DNA of 64,000 bases, from NCBI GenBank assembly GCA_028688325.1, contig JAQTYI010000003.1:32116-96115 (forward strand), read 5' to 3'. Under the pieces are notes generated by a model. The model worked only from the letters and a program-made list of their open reading frames with translations, was not told where the DNA came from and ran no database searches. Within the stretch, counting starts at the first letter, position 1. Each line of letters opens with the position of its first letter. Below are positions 10,978 through 33,568 of this stretch, piece by piece. Source of the DNA: Candidatus Portnoybacteria bacterium (GTDB lineage: Bacteria > Patescibacteriota > Minisyncoccia > Portnoybacterales > GWB1-42-6). The position numbers and the translations under genes were made by a program.

Positions 10978-11205
10978 TGCACCGGGAGGGAATCGGCCTC
11001 GGCTCTCGACTCGCAGTTTACCCGAACATAATCGAGGGGCGCTCCTCGGCCTGGCCACCGGCTCGCAGCTTCGCCTGCTGGCGAAACATCGCTCCGCCGT
11101 TCGATTCCTTGCGCGAGCCAAGCAGTTGGCTCGCTCCATGCACAAAAAAATAACTCTGGCGGGTTACTCTTTTTTGTTTACCCTGGGTTTATTTAAATCG
11201 AAAGG
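10978..11205 (-). mobile_element. tRNA-Lys 3'-anchored mini-element with duplicated tRNA 3' end
   Basis: 18-bp direct repeat tgcaccgggagggaatcg at 10978 and 11206; core homologous to 33338-33480. Confidence 0.65.
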
Positions 11206-11278
11206 TGCACCGGGAGGGAATCGAACCCACGACCGTCTCCTTAAAAGGGAGCTGCTCTACCGACTGAGCTACCGGTGC
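11206..11278 (-). tRNA. tRNA-Lys(TTT)
   Basis: GCACCGGTAGCTCAGTCGGTAGAGCA-CTCC-CTTTTAA-GGAG...GGTTCGATTCC; cloverleaf. Confidence 0.95.
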
Positions 11279-11425
11279 GCAACTACGCTCCGATTTTCAT
11301 CGGAGCTTCGATGGGCAAGCATTGAGTCAAGTAAACTGCTTGTCCGTCCGAAGCTCAAATGTAATGCGAGCGGAGGCGGAAGCTACCGGTGCGCACTTAA
11401 TAATTTACCATATTTTACAGAAAAA

Positions 11426-12121
11426 TCAACCCCCTGCTTCTTCTTGGTTTTTTAATTTTTCTCTTATCAGCACTTTTATTGCCGTCAGGCCGTCGCGGTA
11501 TTTTACTTTTTTGCCTTCCTTTTTTACCCGCGGATTGTAGGTTATGGACAGCTCGGTTATTTTAATTCCTTGCTTCAAAATTTTAGCGGTGATTTCCGGC
11601 TCAATTTCAAACCGCTTGCCCGCTAATGACAGATTTTTTAGAATATCCGCCCGAAACATTTTATAGGCCGTTTCCATATCGGTCAATTTTGCGCCGAAAA
11701 GAAAATTGGTCAGGCCCGTTAAAAAACGATTGCCCAAATAATGGACCTTGTTTTTCTCGGGCCGATAGCCGACAAAACGGGAGCCGTAAACGACAGAAAG
11801 ATCGTTTTTCAACAAATGGTCAAAAAGCGAAGAAATCTGATCGATGTCATATTCCAAGTCCGCATCGCAAAAAACTACAAAATTGCCGCGCGCGGCATCA
11901 ATGCCCGTCTTCACGGCCGCACCCTTGCCCAAGTTGCTTTCGTGCTTCAAATTTTTTATTTTTGAATAAAAGCCGCTTATTTTTTCACTGGTGCCGTCGG
12001 TTGAGCCGTCATCAACCACAATAATCTCTTTGTCCATCGCCAACGCCAACAAACGCTCCAGCACTTCTTGGATTGTTTGCACCTCATTGAAAACCGGAAC
12101 AATAATGGAAAGCTTGGGCAT
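11426..12121 (-). CDS. GT2 glycosyltransferase (DPM1-like)
   Basis: SIIVPVFNE, VDDGSTDGT, GKGAA, DADLEY, GSRF, TDMET. Confidence 0.9.
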   Translation of the reverse strand: MPKLSIIVPVFNEVQTIQEVLERLLALAMDKEIIVVDDGSTDGTSEKISGFYSKIKNLKHESNLGKGAAVKTGIDAARGNFVVFCDADLEYDIDQISSLFDHLLKNDLSVVYGSRFVGYRPEKNKVHYLGNRFLTGLTNFLFGAKLTDMETAYKMFRADILKNLSLAGKRFEIEPEITAKILKQGIKITELSITYNPRVKKEGKKVKYRDGLTAIKVLIREKLKNQEEAGG

Positions 12122-12207
12122 AATAAAAATTTTCAATTATCAACTTTCAATTTTCAACAAAGCCCCGCTGCGCGGGGCGAAAAATACAACCTTCAAATTA
12201 ATAAAAT

Positions 12208-12750
12208 TTATTCTTCATAGCTATACTGGGACTGGCGGCCGCGCAGAAACATTATGGCCAGAATCGGCGCCAGAAGCCACATAAAATACGGCCATGGGCC
12301 GACAAAAATAATTTGCGCCAACGGACTGAGGCCGGCCGTCACTTTTGCCGGCAAAAAAGCGATAATCATGGATAAAATCAAACCGATCTGTAAAACGCTC
12401 AGAATTAATATCTGCCACCAAGCACCGCTTCCTTTTCCTCCCAGGCGCATAGTGTGGCGCAGAGAAGAATGAGGAATAGCGAAATAGAAACCCAGCACCA
12501 GCGCCAAAAAAATAAATATCTGCGTCGTGCTGACCGGCGCCGCTTTTAAGCCGAGCCAAGAAAGTTCTTTCCAGGGAATCGCGCGGGTGAGCAAAAAGGA
12601 AAAATAAGCCCCCAGCATCATCGCCACCAGCCGGTTGCGCCCCATAAAAAGCCCATAGGCCAGTGCCACGGCTAAAAATACCAAAGCGCTCAGCCAGTCC
12701 CAAGAGCCAGAAAAGCTTATATTTTGCAGATTTATAAAAGCGAGATTCAT
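12208..12750 (-). CDS. Hypothetical multi-pass membrane protein
   Basis: Five hydrophobic segments; co-directional with the dnaK operon. Confidence 0.7.
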   Translation of the reverse strand: MNLAFINLQNISFSGSWDWLSALVFLAVALAYGLFMGRNRLVAMMLGAYFSFLLTRAIPWKELSWLGLKAAPVSTTQIFIFLALVLGFYFAIPHSSLRHTMRLGGKGSGAWWQILILSVLQIGLILSMIIAFLPAKVTAGLSPLAQIIFVGPWPYFMWLLAPILAIMFLRGRQSQYSYEE

Positions 12751-12792
12751 AATCCTCCAATTACGAATTTATTTTTATCTATTCTGTTTATT

Positions 12793-12984
12793 CCGCGCAT
12801 ACGAAAAACTTTACACCTTCTTTGTCATTTCCGCCCCACATCAAGTGCGGGGTAAACTGGAGACGGGAATCTAGGCCTTAACCCCTGAATCTGGATCCCG
12901 GGTCAAGCCCGGGATGACAACTGGTGTTGTCAATTTTATCGTCGGGCGCAGTTTTTGCGCCACTTTTTGCTGCCAAAAAGTGGC
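12793..12984. repeat. Long structured repeat with nested 97-bp GTCAT element (12823-12919)
   Basis: Ends match the copies at 17855 and 32249 (cgcgcatacgaaaaa / aattttatcgtc.g.gcg...ccaaaaag). Confidence 0.8.
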
Positions 12985-13008
12985 AAGCGACAAAAAGGTA
13001 GTAAAAAA

Positions 13009-14127
13009 TTATTGTTCTATTTCTCTTCTTAAACCTTCTAACAACTCCTTAGCTTTTTTAGACAAGTGCTTGGGTGTTTTTATCTTCACTTTCACTATCA
13101 TATCACCCGCTCCTCGCCGCTGCAAACGAGGCATACCCCTGCCCTCCAATTGAATATTGGTGCCGCTTTCCACGCCTTCAGGAATTTTCAGCTTAACCCA
13201 GCCGGCCAGCGTCGGCACTTCAATTTTGTCGCCCAAAGCCGCTTGAGAAAAAGAAATCTGCAAATTGTAGAACAGGTCGTCGCCCTCTCGCGAAAATCGC
13301 GGATCGGGCCGAACATGCACCGTTACATATAAATCCCCTGCTGGCGCGCCGTACGGGCCCGCCTCACCCTGACCGGCCAAACTGATAACCTGCCCGTCGC
13401 TGATGCCCGCGGGAATTTTAACCCTCAATGACTTGCTTTCTTTTATCCTGCCTTCTCCGCCGCATTTTGAACAAGCTTTATCGGGCTTCTTACCGCTGCC
13501 GTGGCATGCGGGGCATATCACTACTTGGGAAAAATTGAAAAATCCGTTGCCGCTGCGCTGTTCAACCTGGCCCGCGCCTTTGCAGGTCGGGCAGGTTTTC
13601 AGTTTTGAACCCGGTTCCGCTCCGTTGCCCGAGCACCTGTCGCAAACTACGGCCCGCCGCAAATTTATTTCCTTGTCCATTCCCCTAAAAGCATCTTCCA
13701 GGGATATTTCCACATCCACACCAATATTTTGCCTCCGGCTGCTCCTTGCACTTCTGCCCCGTCCGCTGCCGCCAAATATACCCTCAAAGATATCTTCAAA
13801 TCCGCCGCCATTTCTGTTGTTGTTGCTATTGCCGCCTTGACCGAAATTAAACGCCTCGGCAAAAGAGGAAAAATCACGGAAGCCCTCAAAACCGGGCGCA
13901 CCGCCCCGGGCCTGCGCTTGTTCGAAAGTGGAGCCGAACCGGTCATATTGGCTTTTTTTCTGCGGATCGGATAGGACTTGGTAGGCCTCGTTCACTTCCT
14001 TGAATTTTTCCTGGTCGCCGCCCTTGTCCGGATGGTGTTGCTGCGCCAAGCGCCGATAAGCCCGCTTGATCTCATCAGGCGAGGCGGTCTTTAAAACATC
14101 AAGAATTTTATAATAATCTTTGGACAC
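13009..14127 (-). CDS. dnaJ: Chaperone DnaJ
   Basis: DYYKIL..HPD, G/F region, four CxxCxGxG; GTG start assumed. Confidence 0.95.
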
Positions 14128-14132
14128 AAAAT

Positions 14133-14260
14133 TAATAACCAATCACCAAGATACAAGATACAAACAAATTGCAATAATCAAATTTAAAAAGTTCAAACCG
14201 GTTTGATTATTGAATTTTGGGATTTGAAATTTGTTTGGTTATTGTATCTTGGTTATTGTC
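14133..14260. repeat. Inverted heptamer-period array
   Basis: aataaccaatcaccaagatacaagatacaa... mirrored by ttggttattgtatcttggttattg. Confidence 0.75.
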
Positions 14261-14262
14261 TC

Positions 14263-15084
14263 TTATATCTCTAAAATTTCCCTTTCCGCCGCCACTTTAT
14301 TTATTTTAACCACTCCGCTCCACAACAGCGCTCGGAATACCAGCCAGGCAAAAAGCATCATCGCCCAGGAAAGAAAAGTGCCGATAACCTTAAGGCCGAA
14401 AAATATGCTGACTGAAGCCCCCAACGGCAACCATTTTTTAGACGACCGGCCGGCTGCGCTTATTTCTTCATTCATTGAAAAATATATCTTATCTAAAACC
14501 TCCGCTTTTTGTTTTTTAAACTCCGGAGTCGGTTTTAAATCTGTCTTTTGCGGCGAACTTATACCCAAGGCCAGATCGGCTGCCGGACCGGCAATAGCAT
14601 CGAACAAAGGCCGGGGCACAGAAATATTGCCTCCCAGCGACTGGGTGAATGGCGTAAAATAAAAAAGCAAGGTAACGAGCAACGCCAGGCCCGTGATCAT
14701 CGGCGCCAGGCCTTTTCGGAGAATTATCCCGGAAATGAACTTTATCCGCAGTGTCTTTTCAAAATGGCTGCGATAAGCCGCCAGAATAAAAAATATTATC
14801 GCGCCGGCCAGCACGAGCATAGTTGCCAAGCCCGGTTTCAAAAAAACCAAAACCGGCAAGATTATCGCCGCCGGCATGCCGTATAAAAACAGCTCGTCGC
14901 TTTCAACAAGGAAAAATAATCCCGCGCAAATTCCCAAAGCCATCAAAAAAACCAAAGACCAAATTGATCTTACTATCCAATCGGGGCTGTCGCTTAACGC
15001 GTTCGTCAATGTCGCCCAAAATAAAAACGAAAAAACCAGGATTAAAACTCCCAACGCCGAATGTACGATAATTTTCTTGTTCAC
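14263..15084 (-). CDS. Hypothetical multi-pass membrane protein
   Basis: Long hydrophobic ORF between dnaK and dnaJ; start uncertain (15084 or 15102). Confidence 0.7.
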   Translation of the reverse strand: MNKKIIVHSALGVLILVFSFLFWATLTNALSDSPDWIVRSIWSLVFLMALGICAGLFFLVESDELFLYGMPAAIILPVLVFLKPGLATMLVLAGAIIFFILAAYRSHFEKTLRIKFISGIILRKGLAPMITGLALLVTLLFYFTPFTQSLGGNISVPRPLFDAIAGPAADLALGISSPQKTDLKPTPEFKKQKAEVLDKIYFSMNEEISAAGRSSKKWLPLGASVSIFFGLKVIGTFLSWAMMLFAWLVFRALLWSGVVKINKVAAEREILEI

Positions 15085-15150
15085 CCCGCTAGAATTTTCC
15101 ACAAATAACGAATCACCCGTTAAATCTTATATTTAAAAATTCTAACGGGG
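15084..15150. mobile_element. MITE-like element (CCCCG.TAGAA...TTCTAACGGGG), TSD TTCA
   Basis: Terminal inverted repeats flanked by ttca on both sides. Confidence 0.6.
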
Positions 15151-15253
15151 TTCATGCGGTAATTATCGCAAAAATCAGCAACTTTATCAACCCGCATAAA
15201 TGCCGTCGCGCCCCGCCTCGAGGCGGGGCGCAAATTTTAACATTAGACGGTGG

Positions 15254-17098
15254 CTATTTCTTTTCGCTTCCTTCTTCAAACTCTCCCTTAATAGACCCGT
15301 CTCCCTTATCTTTAATTTCCGGCTCCTCGGTTACTTCTTTTTCCGTGGCTTTTTCCTGTTTGTACATTTCCGAGCCGATTTTTTGGATCTCCTGCTGCAA
15401 GGCGTCCAAGGATTGCTTCAAGGCCGCTTCGTCGTTGCCATCTTTCACTTTTTTTACGGCCTCTATCTTTTCTTCCACGCCTCTTTTGATGTCCGCCGGC
15501 ACTTTATCGCCAGCGTCGCGCAAGGTTTTTTCAACGCTGTAGATTGTCGTATCGGCCTGATTGCGCAGATCGATTATTTCTTTCAGTTTGCGGTCATCGG
15601 CCGCGTGCGCTTCGGCTTCTTGCTTCATGCGCTCAATATCTTCTTTAGACAACGCGGAAGTATCTTTAATGGTGATATTCTGAGATTTATTGGTGGCCTT
15701 ATCTTTAGCCGTCACAGTTAAAATGCCGTTGGCGTCGATATCAAAGCTAACTTCGATCTGCGGCACGCCCCGCGGCGCCGGCGGAATTCCATCCAATATA
15801 AAGCGCCCCAAGGTCCTGTTGTCTTTCGCCAGAGGCCGCTCGCCCTGCAAAATATGGATTTCCACGCCCGGCTGATTATCGGAAGCCGTGGAGAACACCT
15901 GTGATTTTTGCGCGGGAATTGTCGTGTTGCGCTCAATTAGCGGAGTTGAAACGCTGCCCATAGTTTCAATGCCCAGGGTCAAAGGCGTAACATCAAGCAA
16001 CAGAACATCTTTCATTTCGCCGCCCAACACCGCCCCCTGAATGGCCGCGCCCATCGCCACGCATTCCATCGGGTCAACGCCCCGTTCGATTTTTTTGCCG
16101 ATATAGTCCTCGACGAATTTTTGCATTATCGGCATGCGCGTGGGCCCGCCCACCATAATGATACGGGTGATGTTTTGCGGACCCAATTTGGCATCATTCA
16201 ACGCCTGTTCCATCGGATGCTTGCAACGGTCGATTATGGGCTTGACCAATTCTTCCAGCTTGGCGCGCGTAATTTTCAATTGCAAATGCTTGGGGCCGTT
16301 CTGATCGGCCGTAATGAATGGCAAGTTGATATCCGTTTCCAGGGTGGAGGAAAGTTCTATTTTGGCTTTTTCCGCCGCTTCCTTCAAACGCGTCATGGCC
16401 ATTTTGTCTTTGCCCAGATCGATGCCGGATTCTTTCTTGAATTCACCCATAATATAATTAACCAGATTCTCATCCATATCCGTGCCGCCAAGATGTGTGT
16501 CGCCGGAAGTGGAAATAACCTCAAACACGCCTTCGCCAAATTCCATAATGGTGCAATCCAGCGTTCCACCGCCAAAGTCAAACACCAATATCTTTTCATC
16601 TTTGCCGGCCTTATCTATTCCGTAGGCCAAAGCCGCGGCTGTGGGCTCGTTGATTATGCGCACAACCTCCAAACCGGCGATGGAACCGGCGTCTTTGGTC
16701 GCCTGGCGCTGGGCATCATTAAAATATGCCGGCACGGTGATGACCGCTTTTTCCACCCGGTCGCCAAGATAGGCCTCGGCGTCTTTTTTTATTTTTTGCA
16801 AAATATACGCGGAAATCTGTTGGGGAGTGTATTCTTTCGCGTCTATTTTTATTTTTTCATCCGTGCCCATTTTGCGCTTAACGGCCAAGATGGTGCGCTC
16901 GGGATTGGTCACGGCCTGGCGCCGGGCCGGCTCGCCCACTAAAAGCTGGCCGTCTTTAGTGAAAGCCACATAAGAAGGAAACGCCTTGCCGCCAACGGTT
17001 GTGCCTTCGGCAGAAGGAATGATTAGGGGCTTGCCGGCTTCAACAACCGCCGCCGCCGAATTTGATGTGCCCAGATCGATACCGATGATTTTTGACAT
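15254..17098 (-). CDS. dnaK: Chaperone DnaK
   Basis: [40 protein letters not shown]. Confidence 0.97.
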
Positions 17099-17107
17099 AA
17101 CTTTTTT

Positions 17108-17228
17108 AAAAATCCAAATTACCAAATCCCAATGACCAATCAATGACCAAGCCCTAAATCCCAAAAATTCATTTTGACATTGGGATTTGGGATTTTATTG
17201 GTCATTGGAAATTTGACATTTGATATTT
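17108..17228. repeat. Inverted heptamer-period array
   Basis: aaatcccaatgaccaa...ttgacattgggatttgggatttt; homologous to the arrays at 20886 and 25034. Confidence 0.8.
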
Positions 17229-17245
17229 ATTTATATTTTTTAAAT

Positions 17246-17836
17246 TTATTTACTCACCTTCACTTTCGCCGCTCTTATAATTTTTCCATTTAATAAATAT
17301 CCCTTCTGCACTTCCTCCACGACCGCGCCTTCGCCGACATCCTTCGCTTCCACACACTCAACAGCTTCATGCAGCGCCGGATCGAATTTTTCACCAACCG
17401 CCTTCATCTCCATTAAGCCGTGTTTCGATAAAATCTTCATTAATTGGTCGCGTACAATTTTTAAACCCTCTACTCCTCCCTTTGAATTTAACCCCTCTTC
17501 GCCACCCTTTAAAAGGGGGGTTGGGGGGTTAGAACTTTTTTCCCCGCGCTCCTGCGCTGCTGAAGCGTCTAAAGTATCCAGCACGGGCAGCAAATCCCTC
17601 AATAGCCCTTCCCCGAACATCTTGCTCCACTCGCCCATCTGCTCTTCCTGGCGCCGCCTGTAATTTATAAAATCCGCCTGCGCCCGCTGCCAGCCCGCCA
17701 GATTATCCTGTTTTTCTTTCTGGCACTGCTCCAGTTTTTCTTTCATCTTTCCCAGCTTGTCTTTCATATCAACCGCGGCACTTTCGTTGTTTTCTTCTTC
17801 GTAATTTATATCTCGGCCTTTTTCTTCTTTATCCAT
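17246..17836 (-). CDS. grpE: Nucleotide exchange factor GrpE
   Basis: RAQADFINYRRR, LLPVLD, FDPALHEAV, QKGY.L...IRAAKV. Confidence 0.95.
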   Translation of the reverse strand: MDKEEKGRDINYEEENNESAAVDMKDKLGKMKEKLEQCQKEKQDNLAGWQRAQADFINYRRRQEEQMGEWSKMFGEGLLRDLLPVLDTLDASAAQERGEKSSNPPTPLLKGGEEGLNSKGGVEGLKIVRDQLMKILSKHGLMEMKAVGEKFDPALHEAVECVEAKDVGEGAVVEEVQKGYLLNGKIIRAAKVKVSK

Positions 17837-17854
17837 ATATATTGGTATTTTTTA

Positions 17855-18048
17855 CGCGCATGCGAAAAATTTTGCTATGAATTCGCGATGAGTTGAGCGT
17901 TAAAAAATTGCGTGCTGTGGTGGGGCCCCGATCGTCAGGTCGGGGCGTTGTGGATAGCAATTTTAGCGAAACGAATCCGAATTTATCAAAATTTTATCGC
18001 CGCGCGGCGGTTTTTTCCGCCGCTTTTTTGCCGCCAAAAAAGCGGCAA
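17855..18048. repeat. Long structured intergenic repeat
   Basis: Collinear with 32249-32437, including ggggccccga.cgtcaggtcggggcgttg. Confidence 0.85.
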
Positions 18049-18052
18049 AAGA

Positions 18053-18769
18053 TTATTGTTTATTGTTAACTGTTTTCTGTTTATTGACGCGCTTGCGCGT
18101 CTCTTCCAGCACAAACTTGTTTTTCCGGTAATTCATCCTCTTTGGCCCTAAAATCCCCAGAACGCCTCTCTCGCCGTCATTGTCGAAACCCGTCACCACC
18201 AAACTGTAATTTCGCAAATATTTTATGGGGTTTTCGCGGCCGATATAAATTTCCGTTTCTTCATCCATATCGCCGAAAAACTTATTGAAATCATCTTCCA
18301 GCGAATCAAAGCATTTCATTATATTTTTCAGATCACCGTCCTCAAATTCCGGCTCTTCTGCCAGCCACCCCAGCCCCGCTCCGTGAAAATCAGCCGCTTG
18401 TCCGAAAACCCCCGATAATCCCAGCCCCCGCGAGCAATCGGCCAAAAACTGCGCCATTTCTTTCATTGAGTCATCGTGAATTTTCCTCATCCGGGCCAAA
18501 ACATGCTCCTGCTCGCTCCGGCTAAAATCCTCTTCGCCGAATTCCTCAATAAAAAACCGAAAGGCCTTATCCGTGGGAAGCCGCCCCGCCGAGGTGTGGG
18601 GCTGCTCCAAAAATCCCTCTTTATCCAAAACGAGCATCTCCGCGCGGACGGTGGCGGGACTGAAGTCAAAATGCCACCTATCAGCCAAATCCGAAGACGC
18701 CACCGGCTCACCCGTCCGCTGGTATTCTTTTACTACGGCTTTTAAGATTTTCTTGCGTCTTTCCTGCAT
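18053..18769 (-). CDS. hrcA: Heat-inducible transcription repressor HrcA (short form)
   Basis: EPVAS, SPATVR.EM, QPHTSAGR.PT, GILGPKRMNY. Confidence 0.92.
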   Translation of the reverse strand: MQERRKKILKAVVKEYQRTGEPVASSDLADRWHFDFSPATVRAEMLVLDKEGFLEQPHTSAGRLPTDKAFRFFIEEFGEEDFSRSEQEHVLARMRKIHDDSMKEMAQFLADCSRGLGLSGVFGQAADFHGAGLGWLAEEPEFEDGDLKNIMKCFDSLEDDFNKFFGDMDEETEIYIGRENPIKYLRNYSLVVTGFDNDGERGVLGILGPKRMNYRKNKFVLEETRKRVNKQKTVNNKQ

Positions 18770-18785
18770 AAAATAAAAAATAAGT

Positions 18786-18842
18786 TGTCGTCCTGAGCTT
18801 GTTTCAGGACCTTAGAGATGCCGAAACAAGTTCGGCATGACA
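18786..18842. repeat. GTC...ATGAC repeat in the hrcA leader
   Basis: tgtcgtcctgagcttgtttcagga...tgccgaaacaagttcggcatgaca. Confidence 0.75.
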
Positions 18843-18854
18843 AAATAATACGGA

Positions 18855-18881
18855 TTAGCAGTCCCATACCGCGACTGCTAA
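18855..18881. promoter_or_regulatory. CIRCE operator (variant)
   Basis: TTAGCAGTC-N9-GACTGCTAA directly upstream of hrcA. Confidence 0.9.
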
Positions 18882-18885
18882 AATC

Positions 18886-18914
18886 ATTCTATTACCACCT
18901 AAAACCTTTGTCAA
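18886..18914 (-). promoter_or_regulatory. Sigma70 promoter of the hrcA operon
   Basis: TTGACA-17-TAGAAT on the minus strand. Confidence 0.8.
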
Positions 18915-18955
18915 CTCCCCTCTTTTGTAAAAAGGGGCTGGGGGAGAAGATTTAG

Positions 18956-19087
18956 TTGGCATCCGATGTCCAAAATATTAAAGACCCCGCACCCAGGACA
19001 TCGGATGTCCTAATATTGAATTTAATCTGCTGACATCCGACAACTTAAAATTCAGAATTCTTTAATATTCGGGTTGTCGGATGTCAA
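18956..19087. repeat. 132-bp double-hairpin repeat, copy 1
   Basis: Direct repeat of 20962-21093. Confidence 0.85.
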
Positions 19088-19183
19088 TACTGGCAAAATA
19101 AAAAACCGCTTGGATTTCCAAGCGGGAGCAGTTGGTCTGCTCGGTCCATAAAAAATCGGAATTGAGACGGGAAAATATAAAGA

Positions 19184-20882: not shown

Positions 20883-20885
20883 AAA

Positions 20886-25152: not shown

Positions 25153-25163
25153 AAATAACCTTA

Positions 25164-25766
25164 ATGCTTCCTCCTTCCCTCAAAACCCTCATCGACCATC
25201 TTTCAAGATTGCCGGGGTTAGGCCAGCGCTCCGCCACCCGTTTGGCTTTTTATCTTATCGGCCAGCCGCCGGCCGACTTGCACGGCTTAGCGCAAGCCAT
25301 AAAGGACTTGCCGGCCAAGATTAAGCATTGCCCGCGCTGTTTCAATTTAACGAGCAACAGCGAACTTTGCGCCATTTGCACGGACAAAAAACGCCAGCAA
25401 AACATCATCTGCGTGGTGGAAGATATTCTGGATATCATCCCCATTGAGCGCACGCGCCAGTTTAACGGCGTTTATCATGTGCTCGGCGGACTTATCTCGC
25501 CCATTGACGGACTCACGCCGGATAAGCTCCGCATCAAAGAATTGATTGTTCGCATCAAGCAATTTCTGGCCCAAAAAGTTCAGCCCGAAATAATCCTGGC
25601 ATTGAACCCCACCACCGAAGGCGACACCACGGCATTATATCTGGAAAAACTCCTGAAGCCGTCCAACGCTAAAATTACCAAATTAAATCGCGGACTCTCC
25701 ACGGGTAGCGACCTTGAATACGCGGATGAAACCACGCTCATCAACGCGTTGAAATATAGGCATTAG
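25164..25766 (+). CDS. recR: Recombination mediator RecR
   Basis: LPGLG.RSA.R, C4 zinc finger, YHVLGG.ISP, EGDTTA, LEYAD. Confidence 0.95.
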   Translation: MLPPSLKTLIDHLSRLPGLGQRSATRLAFYLIGQPPADLHGLAQAIKDLPAKIKHCPRCFNLTSNSELCAICTDKKRQQNIICVVEDILDIIPIERTRQFNGVYHVLGGLISPIDGLTPDKLRIKELIVRIKQFLAQKVQPEIILALNPTTEGDTTALYLEKLLKPSNAKITKLNRGLSTGSDLEYADETTLINALKYRH

Positions 25767-25769
25767 ATT

Positions 25770-25852
25770 AAATCCTCCCCAGCCCTCCCTTACAAAAGGA
25801 GGGGGACGAATTTGATTCCTCCCTTTCGTAAAGGGAGGTTAGGAGGGATTTA
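25770..25852. repeat. CCCTCCC..AAAGGGAGG palindromic repeat pair
   Basis: aaatcctccccagccctcccttacaaaaggagg...cctccctttcgtaaagggaggttaggagggattt. Confidence 0.75.
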
Positions 25853-25931
25853 GTTTCATTTTTGTTCCCAAAATAAAAACCCGCGAAGCTGCATCGCAGC
25901 CCGCGGGTCTTTTATTATAACTGACGCATTT

Positions 25932-28307
25932 TTATTGTATCGGCACCTGGCTGGGCTGGGTCGGGACTTGAGTTATCGCTGGTTTGCCCGCCTGGAGATT
26001 CGCCAAAATATTCTTGATATCCTGGTTGTCGGGATTGAGCGCCAGCACTTTGTTGAATTGTTCTGTCGCCGCTGGCTTATTGCCAAGCTGGTCGTAGACC
26101 AATCCCAGGAAATATCTGGCGTTGGAATAATTTTGGTCTATCAGGACAGCGCGCTCAAGTTCGGCTTTGGCCGAATTCCAATCGGACTTTTTATAATATA
26201 AAAGTCCCAGCTGGAAAGCCACGCCGATATCCTGCGGATATAGGTTTCTTGTCTTAATCATGCTGGCGATAGCTTCGTTGGTCTGGCCGGTTCGGCTATA
26301 AACCATGGCCAGCTCAAACAACGCCTGCGCGTAATCGGGCTTGGCATCTATGGATTTTTTCAGCGCTTCTTCGGCTTTAGCCAGATAATCTTTTTGTCTG
26401 GCGGCCGCCTCCTTATCTTTCTGGGCCGCCTGCGTCAAAATATCAGAACCCAAAACATAAGTGCTGCCCAGCTCGTAATAATACGAAGGATTTTGCGGTT
26501 CAAGTTTTGAGGCCTCACTATAAGCATCAAAGGCCCATTGCTCTGCCCCATTGATATAACCAATAACTGCCCGATAAATCGCCGCCCGCTGGACCCAATT
26601 GTCAACATTCAACGGCGCCAGGTCCGTTGATCGCTTGCCGATGTTTATGGCTGTGGCGATCAGATTCTGAATGTTGGCATCTCGTTCCGCACTCTGCGGC
26701 TTGGCTATTTCCTGGGTAACCTTCTGCAAGGCGGCCCGTGAAAGCGTGCGCAAATAAAGATCGTTATAAGGATTAAGCATCACCGCGTCCTTGATCTTTA
26801 CCGTGCCGCCGTCTATATCGTTTTTTGCGTTCACCGCGGTTATGCCTTTCTGATAAAGAATATCGGCATAATAATAACTGCCTCCAAGATACAGGGCGCT
26901 GATGGTTAAGACCAAAACGACCACGAAAGAGAAAGACAGAAGCGAAGCGAAGGGCGAAGTCCGGTCGAAGGACACCGACATTGCCGGAATTTTTTCAATT
27001 TCTATTTCGGCCTCTTCGCCTTTGGTCGCTAAGGTCTTCAAACACAAAAATGACAAGCCCAGCATGAACCAAAAAGCGAATTCCAAAGTCAGGTTAGTGC
27101 CATAAAAAAACTGCGAAAGAGCCAATACCAGCCAAGACGAAAATATCGCCAGGGTCAAAGGCCAGTTCCTCCCCCGCCGCTTGATAAGCACAAAAAGTCC
27201 ATAAGCCGCGAAACCTATCAATATGACGGCCCAAGTAAGCGAACCCGCTATACCCAGGGTGACCGGCTGGCTGGCAATTTTGGATACCCCTTGATTGAAG
27301 CGGACGCTCCAAAAATCCGTCTGATTCAAAACCTTATCGCGATACAGACCATACGCGTAAGAATATTCCCCCGGCCCCACTCCGAAAATCGGCTTTTTTT
27401 TCAAAACTTGCCTATCGATATCCATTGAAGCGCTCCAGGAGGGCGCGACTTCCGACGGCACGGATAACCATGTGAAAAGATTCAAGCGGATCGGCAAAAG
27501 CATCAAAACCGCAAAAGCCAGAACAAGCATCGGCAGGGCCAAACGAAACTGACTCATTTGCCCTCGATTAATGATGCCGAGAGAAATGATTATTATCGCT
27601 ACAACCAATAAGGCCCACCAAACATTAGCGAAGTTGATGGATAATATCATTATCAAAAACAAGAAAGCGGCTATGCCGTAGAAAATCCGGCGCCAAACCG
27701 GGGTCTCGTTCTCCGTAAAAAGCACCGCGGCCAAAACCATCAGAGAAGCCAGGAGGAATTCCAAAGAGTTGACCGAACCGACGCTGTTAAAATTGGCTAT
27801 TTTGGCAAAGTCCAATGGCAGCAGGAATTTTCCGGCCAGCTGGAAAGCGCCGAAAAGCCCGGCGATAAGCCCCGAAAAGATAAGAATGGAAACAGAATTG
27901 ATCATCTCCTCGCGGCTCTTGATGTTGTTGACCAGGACGAAAAAAATAATGAGCAGAGCGACAAGCGAGAAGAATGCTTCATTGATGACGCTACCCGAGC
28001 CAACCAGGCCCAAATAAAGATTTTTCGACACTACAGCGCTTATCAAGGAAAAAATAGCGAATAGCGCCAAACCGATATTCAGCCAACTTTTTTTCAACTC
28101 CATCCGCCCTTCGGCCATCATTTTGCCAAGCCACGCTATGAGCAGCACCAGGCAGAAAACAACCAGCAGAAGCTGTTTATTCAGCTCTAAAACATTGAGG
28201 TTGAACGGTAGAAAAAACACCGGCGTTAAAAAAGCAAGCAGATAAAGCCCGCCTTTTATCACCCAGTCGCAAAACCAAATCGCCCTCAGGTCGTTCTCTT
28301 TGCTCAT
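25932..28307 (-). CDS. Polytopic membrane protein (O-antigen-ligase-like) with C-terminal TPRs
   Basis: About 12 TM segments, PIFGVGP motif, TPR consensus (YSNARYFLGLVY, LNPDN). Confidence 0.8.
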   Translation of the reverse strand: MSKENDLRAIWFCDWVIKGGLYLLAFLTPVFFLPFNLNVLELNKQLLLVVFCLVLLIAWLGKMMAEGRMELKKSWLNIGLALFAIFSLISAVVSKNLYLGLVGSGSVINEAFFSLVALLIIFFVLVNNIKSREEMINSVSILIFSGLIAGLFGAFQLAGKFLLPLDFAKIANFNSVGSVNSLEFLLASLMVLAAVLFTENETPVWRRIFYGIAAFLFLIMILSINFANVWWALLVVAIIIISLGIINRGQMSQFRLALPMLVLAFAVLMLLPIRLNLFTWLSVPSEVAPSWSASMDIDRQVLKKKPIFGVGPGEYSYAYGLYRDKVLNQTDFWSVRFNQGVSKIASQPVTLGIAGSLTWAVILIGFAAYGLFVLIKRRGRNWPLTLAIFSSWLVLALSQFFYGTNLTLEFAFWFMLGLSFLCLKTLATKGEEAEIEIEKIPAMSVSFDRTSPFASLLSFSFVVVLVLTISALYLGGSYYYADILYQKGITAVNAKNDIDGGTVKIKDAVMLNPYNDLYLRTLSRAALQKVTQEIAKPQSAERDANIQNLIATAINIGKRSTDLAPLNVDNWVQRAAIYRAVIGYINGAEQWAFDAYSEASKLEPQNPSYYYELGSTYVLGSDILTQAAQKDKEAAARQKDYLAKAEEALKKSIDAKPDYAQALFELAMVYSRTGQTNEAIASMIKTRNLYPQDIGVAFQLGLLYYKKSDWNSAKAELERAVLIDQNYSNARYFLGLVYDQLGNKPAATEQFNKVLALNPDNQDIKNILANLQAGKPAITQVPTQPSQVPIQ

Positions 28308-28519
28308 ACGATTCTTTTATCGATAACCGGCTCCGCGTTTTAAATTTTAAGCGCGGGGACGAAAATCAATATAAATTAAAATTACCTGCTATTTTTATAG
28401 AGGCCCGGATTTCTACGCTTATTATAGCAAAATTAACCCTGGCTACCAAGTATTTTTTGTCCACAGCCGAAAACTAAGGAACAAAAAATCCCCGCTCGGC
28501 GCAAGGGATTTTGAATGGG

Positions 28520-28831
28520 TTATTTTTCCGCCTCTATTTCAACGAGGGTATAGGGCTGGCGATGGCCTCTTTTCACCTTCTCGCGCTTCTTGGATTTATA
28601 CTTGAAAATGATAACTTTATCGGCTTTGTCCTGCTTCAGAATTTTAGCGTTGACTTTCGCACCCTTAATGAAGGGTTGGCCGACTTGCACTTTATCACCC
28701 GCCAACACCAATAAAACCTCGTCAAAAACGATCTTGCCGCCCTCTTCGCCTTTCAGTTTTTCAACTCTTAATTTTTGGCCGGGAGAAACAATATATTGCT
28801 TGCCGCCGGTTTTTATGACAGCTAATTCCAT
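28520..28831 (-). CDS. rplU: 50S ribosomal protein L21
   Basis: AVIKTGGKQY, GHRQPYT. Confidence 0.97.
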   Translation of the reverse strand: MELAVIKTGGKQYIVSPGQKLRVEKLKGEEGGKIVFDEVLLVLAGDKVQVGQPFIKGAKVNAKILKQDKADKVIIFKYKSKKREKVKRGHRQPYTLVEIEAEK

Positions 28832-28852
28832 ATTTTTATATAATCAATTTCT

Positions 28853-28881
28853 TGTCATCCCGAACTTGTTTCGGGATGACA
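28853..28881. repeat. Minimal TGTCAT...ATGACA palindrome
   Basis: tgtcatcccgaacttgtttcgggatgaca. Confidence 0.8.
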
Positions 28882-29083
28882 ATTAAAGATAATTTAAGGG
28901 CCCTTCTCAGGGCCGATTTGACTGTTTGTATATTAACAAAAGGCAGCAAAAGGGTCAAGGCCCATTCCAATTTTGACATCTCCCCGGGGCATCCCCTTTG
29001 CATTTTAAGGGCATTGTGCTATAATGCCCTTAAAGGTTTCCATAATAATTAATACATCCGCCAAAAAGCGGACAACAAAAAAC

Positions 29084-29341
29084 ATGGCACAGAAAACCAA
29101 TTCTGCGTTTATGAAGCCCCTCAAGGTCAGCGCTGAGCTGGCTGCGGTGGTCGGCAACGGCCCGATGGCCAGGTCAGAGGTTGTGAAAAAACTCTGGGCC
29201 TATATTAAAAAAAATTCGCTGCAAGACGCGAACAACAAGCGCAATATCAATGCCGATGCGAACCTGAAAAAGGTTTTTGGAGGCAAAGCGGTCGTCAATA
29301 TGTTCGAAATGACCAAGCTTGTTTCCAAGCATCTCTCGTAA
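29084..29341 (+). CDS. SWIB/MDM2 domain protein
   Basis: S.ELAAVVG..P..RSEVVKKLWAYIK...LQD..NKRNI..D..L. Confidence 0.9.
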   Translation: MAQKTNSAFMKPLKVSAELAAVVGNGPMARSEVVKKLWAYIKKNSLQDANNKRNINADANLKKVFGGKAVVNMFEMTKLVSKHLS

Positions 29342-29418
29342 GAGAATTCCAAATAAAAAATCCCTTGCCAATCGGCGGGGATTTTTTATTTAAATAGGAT
29401 AGCTTAATCACTTTTCCC

Positions 29419-30510
29419 TTATTCTTCGTCCTTTATCGCCGGGCCTTCAATTTGCATGGGCTCGATATCGCTTGTCTTGCCCGTAATTTTCACAACATCC
29501 TTGTCTATCTTGCCAAACTCCTTGTAGGCACGGTTATACATATTAACGGTTGTGCCAAGATTGTTGCCGAGTTTTTTCAGATATTCTTCGTAGCTCCCCA
29601 GATGCTTTTGCAGCATTTCCACATACTTGCGGATTTCCTTGGCCGATTCCTCGATCTGCAACGCGCGCAAGCCCTGCATCACCGTTTGCAGATAAGCGAA
29701 AAACGAAGTTGGCGAAACGATGATGACATGCTTTTCCTTGAACGCGTATTCTATCAAATCGCGCGTATTCACTTTGATGGCGCCCACTTGGTTTATCAAC
29801 AAGTCATAATATATGCCTTCAGCCGGAATGAACATAAAGGCGAAATCCATCGTGTCTTCGTTGGGCCGGATGTATTTGGCGGTTTCGTCTATCCGGTTTT
29901 TCAAGTCCATCTTGAACTGCTTTTCCAGATACTCTTTTTGCGTTTCGTCTTTTTCCTGCAGAATGCGGTTATAATTTTCCAATGAGAACTTTGAATCGAT
30001 GGGAATTATCTTGTCCTTAACAAACACGGCCGCGTCCACGATGTCGCCGTTCTTGAATTCGTATTGCATCTGATAGTTTTTGGGCGGAAGAACATTCTTC
30101 AGAACATTTTCCAAAAAATATTCGCCCAAAACCCCGCGGTGCTTGGGATTTTTTAAGACATCTTCCAACCCCTGCAGCTGATCGGCCACATTCATCACCT
30201 GTTTGTTGGTTTCATCCAGCTTGGTCAGTTTTTCCGTCACATTGATCATCTTATCGCCCATATCTTTGACGATCTTTGAACTTTGGGCAAATTGCTGCTG
30301 GAACATCTTGGCCGAGTCGCCCATTTTGCTATCCACCTGTGTGCCAAAGGTTTGCAAGGTCTGGCGCAACTCTTTCAACTGCTCCTGCATCATCAAAATG
30401 GCCGAGTTATCCTGCGGCTTATCTTCCGGCTTTTTTTTCAGAGTAATATAAATCAGCGCGCCGACAGCGGCCAGAACGACAAATAACAGATAATCTTGCC
30501 ATATACTCAT
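29419..30510 (-). CDS. rmuC: DNA recombination protein RmuC
   Basis: N-terminal TM, RG.LGE, IDSKF, TMDFAFMFIP.E, VSPT. Confidence 0.9.
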   Translation of the reverse strand: MSIWQDYLLFVVLAAVGALIYITLKKKPEDKPQDNSAILMMQEQLKELRQTLQTFGTQVDSKMGDSAKMFQQQFAQSSKIVKDMGDKMINVTEKLTKLDETNKQVMNVADQLQGLEDVLKNPKHRGVLGEYFLENVLKNVLPPKNYQMQYEFKNGDIVDAAVFVKDKIIPIDSKFSLENYNRILQEKDETQKEYLEKQFKMDLKNRIDETAKYIRPNEDTMDFAFMFIPAEGIYYDLLINQVGAIKVNTRDLIEYAFKEKHVIIVSPTSFFAYLQTVMQGLRALQIEESAKEIRKYVEMLQKHLGSYEEYLKKLGNNLGTTVNMYNRAYKEFGKIDKDVVKITGKTSDIEPMQIEGPAIKDEE

Positions 30511-30534
30511 GAATTTAATTTAAATTTAATCACC

Positions 30535-30563
30535 TTGACATACACTTATCAACAGCCTATACT
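30535..30563 (+). promoter_or_regulatory. Consensus sigma70 promoter facing the DUF3800 3' end
   Basis: TTGACA-17-TATACT. Confidence 0.8.
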
Positions 30564-30568
30564 ATAGG

Positions 30569-30617
30569 TGTAAGTATCGAAGAAAGGCGTCGACCGTTAG
30601 GACGATGGCCTTTTTTC
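30569..30617 (+). ncRNA. Putative ~48-nt small RNA convergent with and overlapping the DUF3800 gene
   Basis: Promoter followed by hairpin aggcgtcgaccgttaggacgatggcct plus T6; no ORF. Confidence 0.5.
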
Positions 30618-31412
30618 ATTTTCTACTACATCTAAGGCAATAATTGGCAACCTACGCCTGATATCTTTATCCACAAAAACATTGAAATTATAGCTTTTAA
30701 AACCATTCATAAATTCCTTAGCTCCCGCGTTATTTTTTAAGTATTCTAAAAACCTTCTTTTATATTTATCACCGCTTAAAATAAGATTGGTTGATAATTT
30801 CAAATCGTAGCTTATTGCTCCAACTATCAAATCCGCTATTTGCAAAAGATCATTTGATTTTGAGTCAAAACGACAAACACCGGCAACTGCTAGTCTCTTA
30901 AATTTATCGTTTATTTTTCTTTTAACATTAACTTCAAATTTAATATCTTTTGGCGTTAAAATATGGTCGGCAATTACCATTATAATCTCGTTATAAGCAA
31001 TGCCAGACTCCAGGACTCTAATTGAGATATCTTCGTATGATTTCCAGGGATCTGCACCAAATTCTCGAAGAAAATACTCCCCCTCTTTGTCTACAGAATA
31101 AGAATTAAAACAAGTACTCCTAGTCGCGAAAAACGCATCTATCGAAAATTTTGCAAAATCTATATTATTCTTAGACAATTTATTAAACTTCATCTCATCA
31201 TAAAAATGACGCTTATTTCTTTCATAGATAATTTTACTGTTTAAATAATATGGTTGAGAGCATTTTATAAACCCGACTGTAAAGAATGGGTCTTTTTTAT
31301 TATTCAGACTGCCGCTCTCGTCCAAAAAACAAAATTTAGTCCAAATTTTTCGATAATCGGTTAAAGAAAGATTATTATTCTCTTTTCCTCTTAAAAAATT
31401 AAAGGCCCCCAT
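30597..31412 (-). CDS. DUF3800 domain protein
   Basis: FLDESG near the N-terminus and DS....LLQIADL near the C-terminus; markedly AT-rich. Confidence 0.8.
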   Translation of the reverse strand: MGAFNFLRGKENNNLSLTDYRKIWTKFCFLDESGSLNNKKDPFFTVGFIKCSQPYYLNSKIIYERNKRHFYDEMKFNKLSKNNIDFAKFSIDAFFATRSTCFNSYSVDKEGEYFLREFGADPWKSYEDISIRVLESGIAYNEIIMVIADHILTPKDIKFEVNVKRKINDKFKRLAVAGVCRFDSKSNDLLQIADLIVGAISYDLKLSTNLILSGDKYKRRFLEYLKNNAGAKEFMNGFKSYNFNVFVDKDIRRRLPIIALDVVENEKRPSS

Positions 31413-31445
31413 TTTTATATTAGTAAATTATCTTATATTATAATT

Positions 31446-32237
31446 TTAACACTTTTTCTTATAGATTAACAGCAACAGAGAAATAGAGAAAATTACTACT
31501 GCTATCCACTGGCTCACGCTCAAAATCCCCCAGCGAGGGTCGGCTAGGGGGCCGGAGGAAACGCGAATGAATTCAAGGAAAAAACGGATGGCGGAATAAG
31601 AAATTAGGAATAATAAAAAGAATAGACCATCTGTCATCGTGAGCCCCGCAGGGGCGTGGCGATCCCGCGATACTGCCGCGTCCACGGAATTGCTTCGTTC
31701 CGCTCGCAATGACATATTTTTTATTTTTTTCTGTAAAAACCAAAACACTGCCAACAACCCGAACCCGACCAGCGATTCATATATCCCCATCGGATGGCGC
31801 GAAATGCCGTCCGGCCATAAAATTCCCCAGGGTAAATTTGTCGGCGCGCCCTGGTGGTCGTTGATTAAAATACAGCCGATGCGGCCAATGCCAATTCCCA
31901 GCGCCATCGGTAGAACAAACAAATCGGCTGTTTTCCAAAAAGGTATTTTGGCCTTTTCCATATACGCCCACCCAAACAATATCGCGCCGATCAATCCACC
32001 CATAAAAGCGGCTCCGCCGCCCGCGGTTAACCGCGCCAGAACCCACGCGCCCGATATTGCGCCAAAAAAAATCGCGACGGCCAGGCCCGCGATTTTTTTT
32101 GGCGCCAGATTTTCTTTCCGGGCCAAGTAATAAAACAATAGATATCCAACGCTAAACCCCAGCCCCGCGAACAAACCCCAGATATAAAGCTTTACGGGAC
32201 CAAGAGAGATTTGATTAATAACAAAATACGGTATCAT
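31446..32237 (-). CDS. lgt: Prolipoprotein diacylglyceryl transferase family
   Basis: FMGGLIG, GIGRIGC, LPWG, RHP..IYE, Y..IRFF.EF.R. Confidence 0.85.
   Translation of the reverse strand: MIPYFVINQISLGPVKLYIWGLFAGLGFSVGYLLFYYLARKENLAPKKIAGLAVAIFFGAISGAWVLARLTAGGGAAFMGGLIGAILFGWAYMEKAKIPFWKTADLFVLPMALGIGIGRIGCILINDHQGAPTNLPWGILWPDGISRHPMGIYESLVGFGLLAVFWFLQKKIKNMSLRAERSNSVDAAVSRDRHAPAGLTMTDGLFFLLFLISYSAIRFFLEFIRVSSGPLADPRWGILSVSQWIAVVIFSISLLLLIYKKKC
31632..31714. repeat. TGTCAT...ATGACA element in frame in lgt
   Basis: Encodes MSLRAERSNSVDAAVSRDRHAPAGLTMT between TM helices. Confidence 0.8.
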
Positions 32238-32248
32238 AAATCCAAGAC

Positions 32249-32437
32249 CGCGCATACGAAAAATTTTGATAGAAAATAGCAATGAGCCGAGCGTCTAAAT
32301 TTGCGTGCTGTGGCGGGGCCCCGACCGTCAGGTCGGGGCGTTGAGGATAGCAAATTTAGCGAGGCGAGTTCTATTTTCTCAAAATTTTATCGTCGCGCGG
32401 GAACTCTTTTGCTACTTTTCTGGTTACAGAAAAGTAG
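32249..32437. repeat. Long structured intergenic repeat
   Basis: Collinear with 17855-18048. Confidence 0.85.
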
Positions 32438-32446
32438 ATGAAAAAA

Positions 32447-33337
32447 TTAATAATTTACCAGCTTCTCCGTTATCGATTCCAGCCAGTCATCGGCATGGAA
32501 ACGCCGGATGATATACCTAAACTTGGGTTGCTGGTCAATGATTTTATACACACTGAAGGCCGCCTGATAGCCGGCTTCTTTGGCAAGCTGAATGACATGG
32601 TCGTTATAGCTTCCGCCGGGATAAGCGAGTAAATCAACTTTTTTGCCGATCCTTTCCTCCAATATTTTTTTACTGCCCGCGAGCTCCGCGCTTAATTGCT
32701 TGTCGTCAACTTTGTTCATAGCCGCGTGATCCAAAGAATGGCTGCCTATGCTCATGCCGTTATCGCTCATTTCCTTAACCTGCTGCCAAGTCATAAAATC
32801 CCTTTTATCTATCCAATCGGTCGTAATAAAGAATGTCGCGGTCATACCGTATTTTTTAAGCAGAGGATAAGCCCATTTGTATTGGCCGTAGCGGCCGTCG
32901 TCAAACGAAATAGCCACGGCTTCTGGCGGCAATGGCTTGCCGGTATCAAAATAATCCAGCAGATCATAAACCGAAACTATCTGATAATTGTTGTCTTTAA
33001 AATATTTCAAATGCGCCTCAAAGCCCTCCGGCGAAACAGTAAAAGCGCGGTCTGTGATAGTTGAGCTGGCAACATCGGGCATTGGCCGGATGTGGTGATA
33101 ATTGAAAACCGGAAATTTTATAACAGCGTTATCAGCCGGCTTTTGATAGCTCGGTTCAGGTGTCATCTCGGCGCTTGAAGGCAGCGGCTCTTGCGTTAGG
33201 GTTCTTTGCGGCAATAAAGTCGGAGTCGATGAATTATTGATTTGCACGGTATTTTCCGCTCGCATCCAATTATAAAAAACCGCTCCGATAGTGGCCAGCA
33301 GCATCAAAATAAGAAAGATGAAAAAAGCTTTTTTCAT
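32447..33337 (-). CDS. Polysaccharide deacetylase (CE4), membrane anchored
   Basis: YHHI, SFDDG, GSHSLDH, AYPGG. Confidence 0.9.
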   Translation of the reverse strand: MKKAFFIFLILMLLATIGAVFYNWMRAENTVQINNSSTPTLLPQRTLTQEPLPSSAEMTPEPSYQKPADNAVIKFPVFNYHHIRPMPDVASSTITDRAFTVSPEGFEAHLKYFKDNNYQIVSVYDLLDYFDTGKPLPPEAVAISFDDGRYGQYKWAYPLLKKYGMTATFFITTDWIDKRDFMTWQQVKEMSDNGMSIGSHSLDHAAMNKVDDKQLSAELAGSKKILEERIGKKVDLLAYPGGSYNDHVIQLAKEAGYQAAFSVYKIIDQQPKFRYIIRRFHADDWLESITEKLVNY

Positions 33338-33496
33338 TGGTAGCCCTACGGGGAATCGGCCGCGGCTCTCGGCTCGCCATCGCTCGCCTCGGCCTGGCCA
33401 CCGCCTCGCCAAATTTTCCGCTGAAAATTCGGCTCCGGCGTTCGATTCCCGACACGAGCCAAGCAATTGGCTCGCTTGCTTTTATGGTATTTATAG
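33338..33496 (-). mobile_element. tRNA-Glu 3'-anchored mini-element with duplicated tRNA 3' end carrying CCA
   Basis: 19-bp direct repeat gtagccctacggggaatcg at 33340 and 33496; core homologous to 10978-11137. Confidence 0.65.
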
Positions 33497-33568
33497 TAGC
33501 CCTACGGGGAATCGAACCCCGATTTTACGGATGAGAACCGTATATCCTAGCCGTTAGATGATAGGGCC
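33497..33568 (-). tRNA. tRNA-Glu(CTC)
   Basis: GGCCCTATCATCTAACGGCTAGGA-TACGG-TTCTCAT-CCGTA...GGTTCGATTCC. Confidence 0.93.

Follow-up and report, generated by a model that had tools for sequence, protein, structure and literature searches.

A family of gene-less, folding modules with the architecture of tRNA-linked repeats behind tRNA genes of a Portnoybacteria genome

The window, i.e. the 64,000-nucleotide stretch of a Candidatus Portnoybacteria contig analysed here, contains two short elements, one behind tRNA-Lys(UUU) and the other behind tRNA-Glu(CUC) (Table 1). Each is closed by an exact copy of the 3' end of its own host gene, of 18 bp in the Lys element (10978-10995 = 11206-11223, period 228) and of 19 bp in the Glu element (33340-33358 = 33496-33514, period 156); an exact 18-mer within 300 nt would be expected by chance at about 4e-9. 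The Glu distal copy ends in CCA where the gene has CTA, and it adjoins the ATG of a polysaccharide deacetylase gene. These features were all found in the sequence, as were the blocks common to both elements, the variable hairpin and the T-loop in inverted orientation that a first-pass annotation had described. The inverted T-arm is specific to each host and is not a universal motif, the distal junctions lack the T-loop GTT, and hairpin C of the Lys element is of a long type that also occurs in the Glu(UUC) copy of the same genome. Contigs from a public DNA run, which is possibly the source of the window itself, span 10907-11233 and 33352-33524 with zero differences, so the elements are not assembly errors. 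One X4 contig skips the Lys unit, a weak hint, as its short side comprises 31 letters only. An Rfam scan of the window at the gathering threshold returned tRNAs only, and no integrase was found in the flanks of the two elements.

Table 1. Positions of the two host genes and of the parts of their elements in the window.
Feature	Positions	Strand	Basis
tRNA-Lys(UUU), host gene	11204..11278	-	
Lys spacer: remnant of another short palindromic repeat, then A-tract/hairpin/T-tract	11139..11203	-	sequence
3' close of the Lys spacer: partial inverted copy of the acceptor 3' strand	within 11139..11203	-	
Lys hairpin A (optional across the family)	11113..11136	-	
Lys anti-T arm: inverted copy of host T-loop/T-stem positions 53-63	11099..11110	-	
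Lys core helix P2 with tandem G-A pairs, and variable hairpin B	11059..11099	-	
Lys core helix P3 and variable hairpin C	10995..11056	-	
Lys distal copy, exact 18 bp of the tRNA-Lys 3' end (56-73)	10978..10995	-	
tRNA-Glu(CUC), host gene	33496..33568	-	
Glu hairpin A	33455..33475	-	
Glu anti-T arm, 11/11 complementary to the host T-arm	33440..33450	-	
Glu core helix P2 and hairpin B	33402..33440	-	
Glu core helix P3 and short hairpin C	33358..33399	-	
Glu distal copy, exact 19 bp of the tRNA-Glu 3' end, and CCA	33338..33358	-	

The two elements belong to a wider family of gene-less, tightly folding modules of 140-280 bases that occurs in very small, uncultured bacteria. A unit consists, in order, of the host 3' end, a spacer, the optional hairpin A, the anti-T arm, a core that forms a three-way junction and a direct copy of the host that starts at 56/57. 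The same genome holds five full copies, every one behind a tRNA, and one half copy; 5 of its 46 tRNA genes carry a unit. A total of 83 non-redundant copies were gathered, 63 of which are no farther than 300 nt from the end of a tRNA or tmRNA, as are 22 of the 24 held-out model matches. The hosts comprise 32 types including tmRNA (more than 30 kinds of tRNA), and this range, together with an orthologous empty site (below), bears out the proposal of a non-autonomous module at the T-loop of many tRNAs. Carriers are patchy (7/151 genomes of the phylum) and one shared core spans several classes. The Lys(UUU) copies are kept at the same site in two genera, which indicates that turnover is slow. Tandem units occur (L008, L080 and L354/L365), as do 1.x arrays. 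An Rfam E-value scan of the copies returned no relevant family, and literature searches, at the level of listings, gave no description of this module family; others gave the E. coli papers and one review. The module is a new, sequence-unrelated family with the architecture of the known, unexplained tRNA-linked repeats (TLRs) of Escherichia coli. A match with a described tRNA-linked repeat, which the first-pass annotation had taken as a refutation of its reading, holds for the architecture, whereas at the level of sequence family none is detectable.

Both arms of the unit are tailored to the host. The distal copy agrees with its own host at 15.9 of 18 positions, compared with 9.3 (maximum 10.3) for permuted hosts, and the anti-T arm agrees at 7.24 of 10 positions (57-66), compared with 5.53 (maximum 6.1), both with n = 62 and with related copies that are not independent. 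The distal copy is exact in 32/62 copies and matches at no fewer than 16 of 18 positions in 43/62. L028, the sole host seen with C55, has the matching G in its anti-T arm, a position that is absent from the distal copy. Where gene and distal copy mismatch, the anti-T arm follows the gene in four cases and the distal copy in two. CCA is present in the distal copy only in five and in the gene only in two of 43 copies; given this lack of an excess, copying from mature tRNA was rejected. An inverted copy of the acceptor gives a weak family-wide signal (6.22 versus 5.81 of 10; at least 8 in 10/60 copies).

Duplication of tRNA 3' ends is the usual signature of islands driven by integrases or serine recombinases, and the units might be remnants of such islands, with attL/attR retained and the cargo lost. 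This explanation is largely refuted and is regarded as improbable. The tyrosine-integrase link drawn in the first-pass annotation is not supported, since the identity block starts at 56/57 and cannot contain the full 7-bp T-loop overlap: the three bases ahead of the distal C56 are GTT in 0/44 copies, and the overlap as given in the accessible text of PMC8371274 is therefore not common to both ends. A search of a viral collection gave 31 pattern matches but no true copy (a second pattern gave 0), and blastn gave no match in phage and plasmid collections. The two tyrosine recombinases of the source genome lie at none of its six copies. In favor of island remnants, L001 and L064 have genes or gene fragments of serine recombinases on the upstream side of the core. 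These two loci hold islands that were read as later insertions, and they were rejected as autonomous versions; the same reading and rejection apply to L055, in which a 230-amino-acid gene (no Pfam match) lies between tRNA-Glu and the core but the distal copy differs from that tRNA. The unit at Gln(CUG) in G002 lies directly behind the tRNA and is followed by the same GIY-YIG gene (82% identical) as in the source genome, so that the 8.4-kb version of the latter is likely to be a later insertion as well. Long versions with recombinase genes, a class that the first-pass annotation had suggested seeking, look like later insertions, and no autonomous version was found.

On the tRNA-sense strand, the core is a strongly covarying three-way junction. 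Paired cells amount to 87.5%, compared with 69% in shuffles, both members vary in 30/38 pairs, there are 26 G-U cells against 4 A-C cells, and RNAalifold alone recovers both P2 and P3. The two folds of the unit differ by about 2 kcal/mol or less as RNA and by 3-5 kcal/mol as DNA. The shared core, the invariant junction bases and the many compensatory changes across several classes imply selection on the fold. This argues against a neutral origin through slippage during replication and the correction of quasi-palindromes at tRNA ends, to which we give little credence, although duplications of variable extended length and eroded arms are found among the copies, and many other fragments gather at tRNA ends in the source genome.

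The fold may belong to a functional pre-tRNA trailer RNA, in which the distal copy would sequester the anti-T arm, supply a processing site and release a small RNA like E. coli RrB/RtT, while ectopic gene conversion would account for the spread of copies. It is the transcribed strand that folds, and GGAA is the commonest loop of hairpin C (17 loops among 77 copies), both in keeping with such a role. Furthermore, the E. coli rrA/B/F TLRs are transcribed, processed and bound by Hfq and CsrA, and the authors proposed the repeat as an RNase E site, according to the accessible text of PMC8144298. However, occurrence is patchy, orthologous sites are empty, distal copies are eroded (L024, L030 and L368) and the set of host tRNAs is not fixed, and a trailer RNA is considered unlikely.

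Several observations concern movement of the unit. The Lys site is empty in G003 and is filled by a unit at the orthologous position in G002, which provides the kind of empty site that the first-pass annotation had suggested seeking. In G002, moreover, Ala(GGC) and Arg(CCU) are followed by cores of 82 nt that are identical to each other; the identical tract stops at position 61 and the Ala distal copy has the A57 of the Arg gene. This pair could reflect conversion between two existing units and not a new jump. In L271, a fragment of an Asp T-arm is followed, in this order, by the 3' end of a Ser tRNA, a unit tailored to Ser and the 3' end of an Asp tRNA, which is the chimera predicted by insertion into a foreign T-arm; it is the only clear chimera, located at a spare fragment on one short metagenome contig. 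Together, the empty site, the tandem arrays, the identical core at two tRNAs and the Asp/Ser chimera indicate traffic at the level of DNA. The best explanation, to which we assign a probability of about 0.5, is a gene-less TLR-type repeat with a single-stranded fold that likely passes from one tRNA gene to another as DNA. Strands would be exchanged in the T-loop, with the inverted T-arm of the repeat acting as the guide in cis and a function that is probably encoded by the host providing catalysis in trans.

In such an exchange, the anti-T arm would have two alternative partners, the distal copy of its own unit (7-8 bp) and an intact T-arm (11 bp). The arm includes a constant GAAC, which would serve as a toehold for the GTTC of any tRNA because it has no partner in the distal copy. 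The GAAC-GTTC pairing would set both 56/57 junctions side by side, exchange at this point would excise or insert the unit of about 170 nt, and gene conversion and template switching would then adapt the arms of a landed unit to its new host. Counted against movement as DNA are the broken chimera that insertion into an essential tRNA would first give, the slow turnover of the Lys(UUU) copies and the lack of an enzyme tied to the unit, of a circle junction and, apparently, of a replication-strand bias. The excised circles that had been sought left no junction in the contigs of four runs per locus, which drop rare variants, and by a crude GC-skew proxy the flank skew is positive for 40/59 copies compared with 34/46 tRNAs of this genome. 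GIY-YIG genes lie beside only 4/83 copies and inside none, and a complete genome with eight copies has no GIY-YIG match at 1e-8. A Y1 transposase was found in 2/8 carrier genomes besides G000 and a reverse transcriptase in 7/10 carriers; there was no strict co-occurrence with the GIY-YIG, Y1 or reverse-transcriptase profiles, but the negative genomes may carry other repeat families, which makes this test a weak one.

Movement might also occur at the level of RNA, in which case the junction would be a ribozyme with the anti-T arm as its internal guide. It would leave the T-loop at 56/57 by splicing, enter it by reverse splicing and then be reverse-transcribed. The geometry aligns both junctions as a guide sequence would, the 5' strand of the tRNA is paired to the distal copy of the acceptor in the minimum-energy folds, and splicing would rescue a chimeric tRNA. 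Such a model, however, has a low probability: no intron or ribozyme of Rfam matched up to an E-value of 5, the constant part of the core is small, the distal copies show no enrichment of CCA, and a reverse transcriptase was not found in the two copy-rich genomes G002 and G078. A more general proposal, which we consider unlikely, is that of a minimal mobile element that aligns itself and carries no gene: the folded unit would use an editable cis guide to invade the universal tRNA T-loop and would recombine there as single-stranded DNA or as a ribozyme; the same mechanism would then explain the E. coli TLRs.

The E. coli TLRs (RtT/rttR, Rfam RF00391; rrA/B/F) have been known since 1978 without a known function (Egan and Landy 1978 and Rudd 1999, as cited in PMC8144298). 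Like the present family, they carry no gene, measure about 150-180 nt, follow different tRNAs, end in an 18-19-bp repeat of the 3' end of the host and are sometimes in tandem. In the units of tyrT and the lysT region, an inverted copy of the host T-arm is also present and base-pairs to the distal copy, with hairpins enclosed between the two; 'inverted' as a word is absent from the accessible text of PMC8144298, and Rudd 1999 or Egan and Landy 1978 may already describe this arm. In contrast, the junction lies at 58/59 in the E. coli TLRs and at 56/57 here, their copy includes an encoded CCA, their core is different, the RF00391 model misses copies of our family and our model R1 misses the E. 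coli units, while the hosts here include tmRNA and 30 tRNA types. A second, sequence-unrelated family with direct and inverted copies, for which over 30 hosts, one empty site, one chimera and the exact junction are known, turns the question of how such repeats gain the 3' end of each host into specific experiments. If the guide model is true, base pairing would offer a route to target any tRNA gene.

The ends of IS200/IS605 elements and the REP/REPIN elements form single-strand hairpins and are moved by HUH (Y1) transposases. Our family shares the single-strand hairpins with them and, presumably, the choice of target by pairing with a cis guide; it differs in its 17-19-bp duplication, in showing no Y1 co-occurrence and apparently, by the crude GC-skew proxy, in showing no lagging-strand excess over other tRNAs. 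With the tRNA islands of tyrosine and large serine recombinases and their integrase-less remnants, it shares the duplicated tRNA 3' end, the intact gene upstream and the empty sites. Unlike these islands, it carries an inverted arm derived from the host and a single-strand fold that covaries, and no recombinase, 7-bp overlap identity or episomal copy was found for it.

The gene-less module behind tRNA-Lys(UUU) and tRNA-Glu(CUC) is real. As the first-pass annotation described, homologous cores lie downstream of both genes, each closed by an exact distal copy of its own host's 3' end (18 bp at a period of 228 for Lys and 19 bp at a period of 156 for Glu), and both units were reproduced in public DNA contigs with zero differences. 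The difference reported at Glu, where the gene ends in CTA and the distal copy in CCA, is also present, as are all the other features named in that annotation. Coordinates, including those of minor observations, are collected in the table.

Coordinates of the two host tRNA genes and of further features in the window, its own genome (G000; contigs C3 and C7) and other collected loci (L-numbers)
Feature	Position	Strand	Remark
tRNA-Lys(UUU)	window 11204-11278	minus	ARAGORN and Rfam
tRNA-Glu(CUC)	window 33496-33568	minus	ARAGORN and Rfam
Junction of Glu unit and polysaccharide deacetylase gene	window 33332-33340		distal CCA abuts start codon
tRNA-Val(CAC) trailer	window 40251-40450		degenerate tRNA 3' fragments, without core
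Palindromic repeat	window 32296-32388		also at G000:C3:213164; mis-called as tRNA at relaxed threshold
Long imperfect palindrome	window 9920-10030		high depth from contigs of other organisms
Island behind tRNA-Gln(CUG)	L001:5669-9803		ABC-three-component defence system (CTD10, MC6, DUF2326); C-terminal remnant of large serine recombinase
Small GIY-YIG genes with tRNA 5'- or 3'-end copies on their flanks	G000:C7:28075, C7:28434, C3:184050, C3:177309, C3:418017
230-aa protein without Pfam match	L055:5220-5912		G000 homologues at C3:255448 and C3:245596, both directly adjoining tRNA genes
Second repeat family, tandem 123-nt units	L002:1120-1560		G000:C3, behind tRNA-Ser(CGA); array extends into assembly gap
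Unit behind tRNA-Arg	L369 (G078:C6:11045-11149)		shifted register: closing stem from very end of tRNA, not T-loop

In the tRNA sense, the host 3' end is followed by a variable spacer (often an A-tract hairpin), an optional hairpin A, an inverted copy of the host T-arm (the anti-T arm) ending in GAAC, the core helix P2, which has tandem G-A pairs and hairpin B, and, beyond a short linker, the core helix P3 with hairpin C; the direct copy closes the unit. Where the distal copy is good, units measure 137-278 nt (median 167). Tailoring to the host was evaluated on 62 copies, one truncated copy having been left out, which represent 32 host types, tmRNA accounting for two. The distal copy shares 15.9 of 18 positions with the host it follows, compared with 9.3 when hosts are permuted, and is exact in 32/62; the anti-T arm agrees at 7.24 of 10 against 5.53 (maximum 6.1), a comparison that includes two mis-anchored rows and kin that are not independent. 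In 15 of the 62, two arm bases are instead engaged in a tandem G-A pair. GTT precedes distal C56 in none of 44 copies, and since position 56 pairs within P3, the host-derived part may begin at 57.

Paired cells make up 87.5% of the named structure, compared with 69% after shuffling and 33-41% in slid controls, and both-sided changes occur in 30 of its 38 pairs. RNAalifold, unaided, recovered P2 and P3 and did not recover the host-specific closing stem. In 75/76 copies the sense strand folds more stably than the other, with RNA and DNA parameters alike, which fits RNA and single-stranded DNA equally; that the units serve as a functional trailer RNA is considered unlikely, and that such a fold acts as a T-loop ribozyme very unlikely.

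The element is widespread but patchy. In the 911-kb assembly of the window's own genome, Lys(UUU), Glu(CUC), Glu(UUC), His and Gly(CCC) are each followed by a full copy, five in all, and a single right half copy terminates with a tRNA-Gln(CUG) end that is 8.4 kb away from the gene itself; the full direct-plus-inverted layout occurs within 450 nt of 5/46 tRNA genes. A GTDB pattern scan of 8 of 64 parts gave 118 loci, of which 24 were true by profile (labelled Patescibacteria groups, 17; Gammaproteobacteria MAG, 4; 'bacterium', 3), and further copies came from searches of metagenomes and relatives. Among 83 non-redundant copies, a tRNA or tmRNA end lies at most 300 nt upstream in 63 and farther away in three; none was called in 17, where the upstream sequence is shorter than 400 nt in 11 and contains a group I intron in one. 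Model R1, trained on 42 of the 61 copies left by a length and redundancy filter, matches 7/151 phylum genomes, including that of the window. Of its 24 matches with loci in the six others, none used in training, 22 are no more than 150 nt from a tRNA end and 14 show an exact duplication of at least 14 bp. The core search and tally of adjacent tRNAs therefore show that most cores neither lie away from tRNAs nor lack the host-specific duplication. The hosts at three loci (L306, L263 and L326) look like intron-split tRNA genes, Rfam confirming a group I intron in L306 only.

A match to a described tRNA-linked repeat was found in architecture and not in family. [quoted passage not shown] The units at E. 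coli tyrT and in the lysT region, like those here, contain an inverted host T-arm, which pairs with the distal copy to close a branched fold, and the final motif of the tyrT arm is close to the tandem-G-A variant of the present family. However, RF00391, the Rfam family RtT, matches the E. coli units only and R1 matches copies of the present family only; the element is thus built like a TLR but is not classed in RtT. It is a variant of the TLR kind, a kind itself unexplained. Raised mobilome coverage at tyrT-rttR is described in a preprint, which puts such RNA-gene signals down to RNA/DNA hybrids, not circles (bioRxiv 10.1101/2024.07.17.603846). A search of literature listings found no account of a Patescibacteria family.

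The suggested link to tyrosine integrases recombining in T-loops was not borne out: the attL/attR reading fails the 7-bp overlap rule (PMC8371274), and no integrase lies within or next to the two window units. A search for longer, recombinase-bearing versions was also suggested, and the 8.4-kb Gln version holds a serine-recombinase remnant; the island is likely a later insertion because in a second genome (G002) a unit stands directly between Gln(CUG) and the same GIY-YIG gene. That the units are island remnants is accordingly judged highly improbable. No copy was found in viral, phage or plasmid collections, the proposed search for excised circles yielded no circle junction in contigs, CCA was not in excess, and a crude GC-skew proxy showed no strand bias beyond that of other tRNAs. 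GIY-YIG genes flank 4/83 copies, and GIY-YIG, Y1 transposase and reverse transcriptase are each absent from at least one copy-rich, complete genome. In the window's genome, 6/11 small GIY-YIG genes lie near a tRNA or a fragment of one.

Signs of movement were observed. The search for empty sites succeeded: the orthologous Lys site is empty in a third genome (G003), with the same downstream flank, and filled in G002, where the distal end of the unit is eroded. Also in G002, Ala(GGC) and Arg(CCU) have identical 82-nt cores, T-loop-derived motifs form the limits of the identical tract, and the Ala(GGC) distal copy carries A57 of the Arg gene. In the window's genome the long hairpin C of Lys(UUU) is common to Glu(UUC) and not to Lys copies of relatives, and a single 657-nt locus (L271) reads as a piece of an Asp T-arm joined to a Ser 3' end, followed by a unit tailored to Ser and then by the 3' end of Asp. 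Tandem arrays are present and some duplications extend at least 30 nt into the trailer. Neutral slippage as the origin of the units is judged very unlikely.

We favour spread at the DNA level guided in cis, at roughly even odds (about 0.5), and regard the strong form of a cis-guide mechanism as unlikely. The main weakness of the DNA-level model is that each new insertion would leave an essential tRNA broken until it was repaired. The anti-T arm can pair either with the distal copy or with the intact gene, the two pairings having similar energies. Its constant GAAC would pair with GTTC, which only the intact gene offers, and pairing would therefore favour the target T-loop, bringing two 56/57 junctions together. 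A host function may then cut and join at these junctions, and the arms could be re-tailored later by conversion. The tandem units behind tRNA-Ser(CGA) have a similar hairpin A, anti-T arm and tRNA-Ser 3' copy, with a different core and no R1 match.
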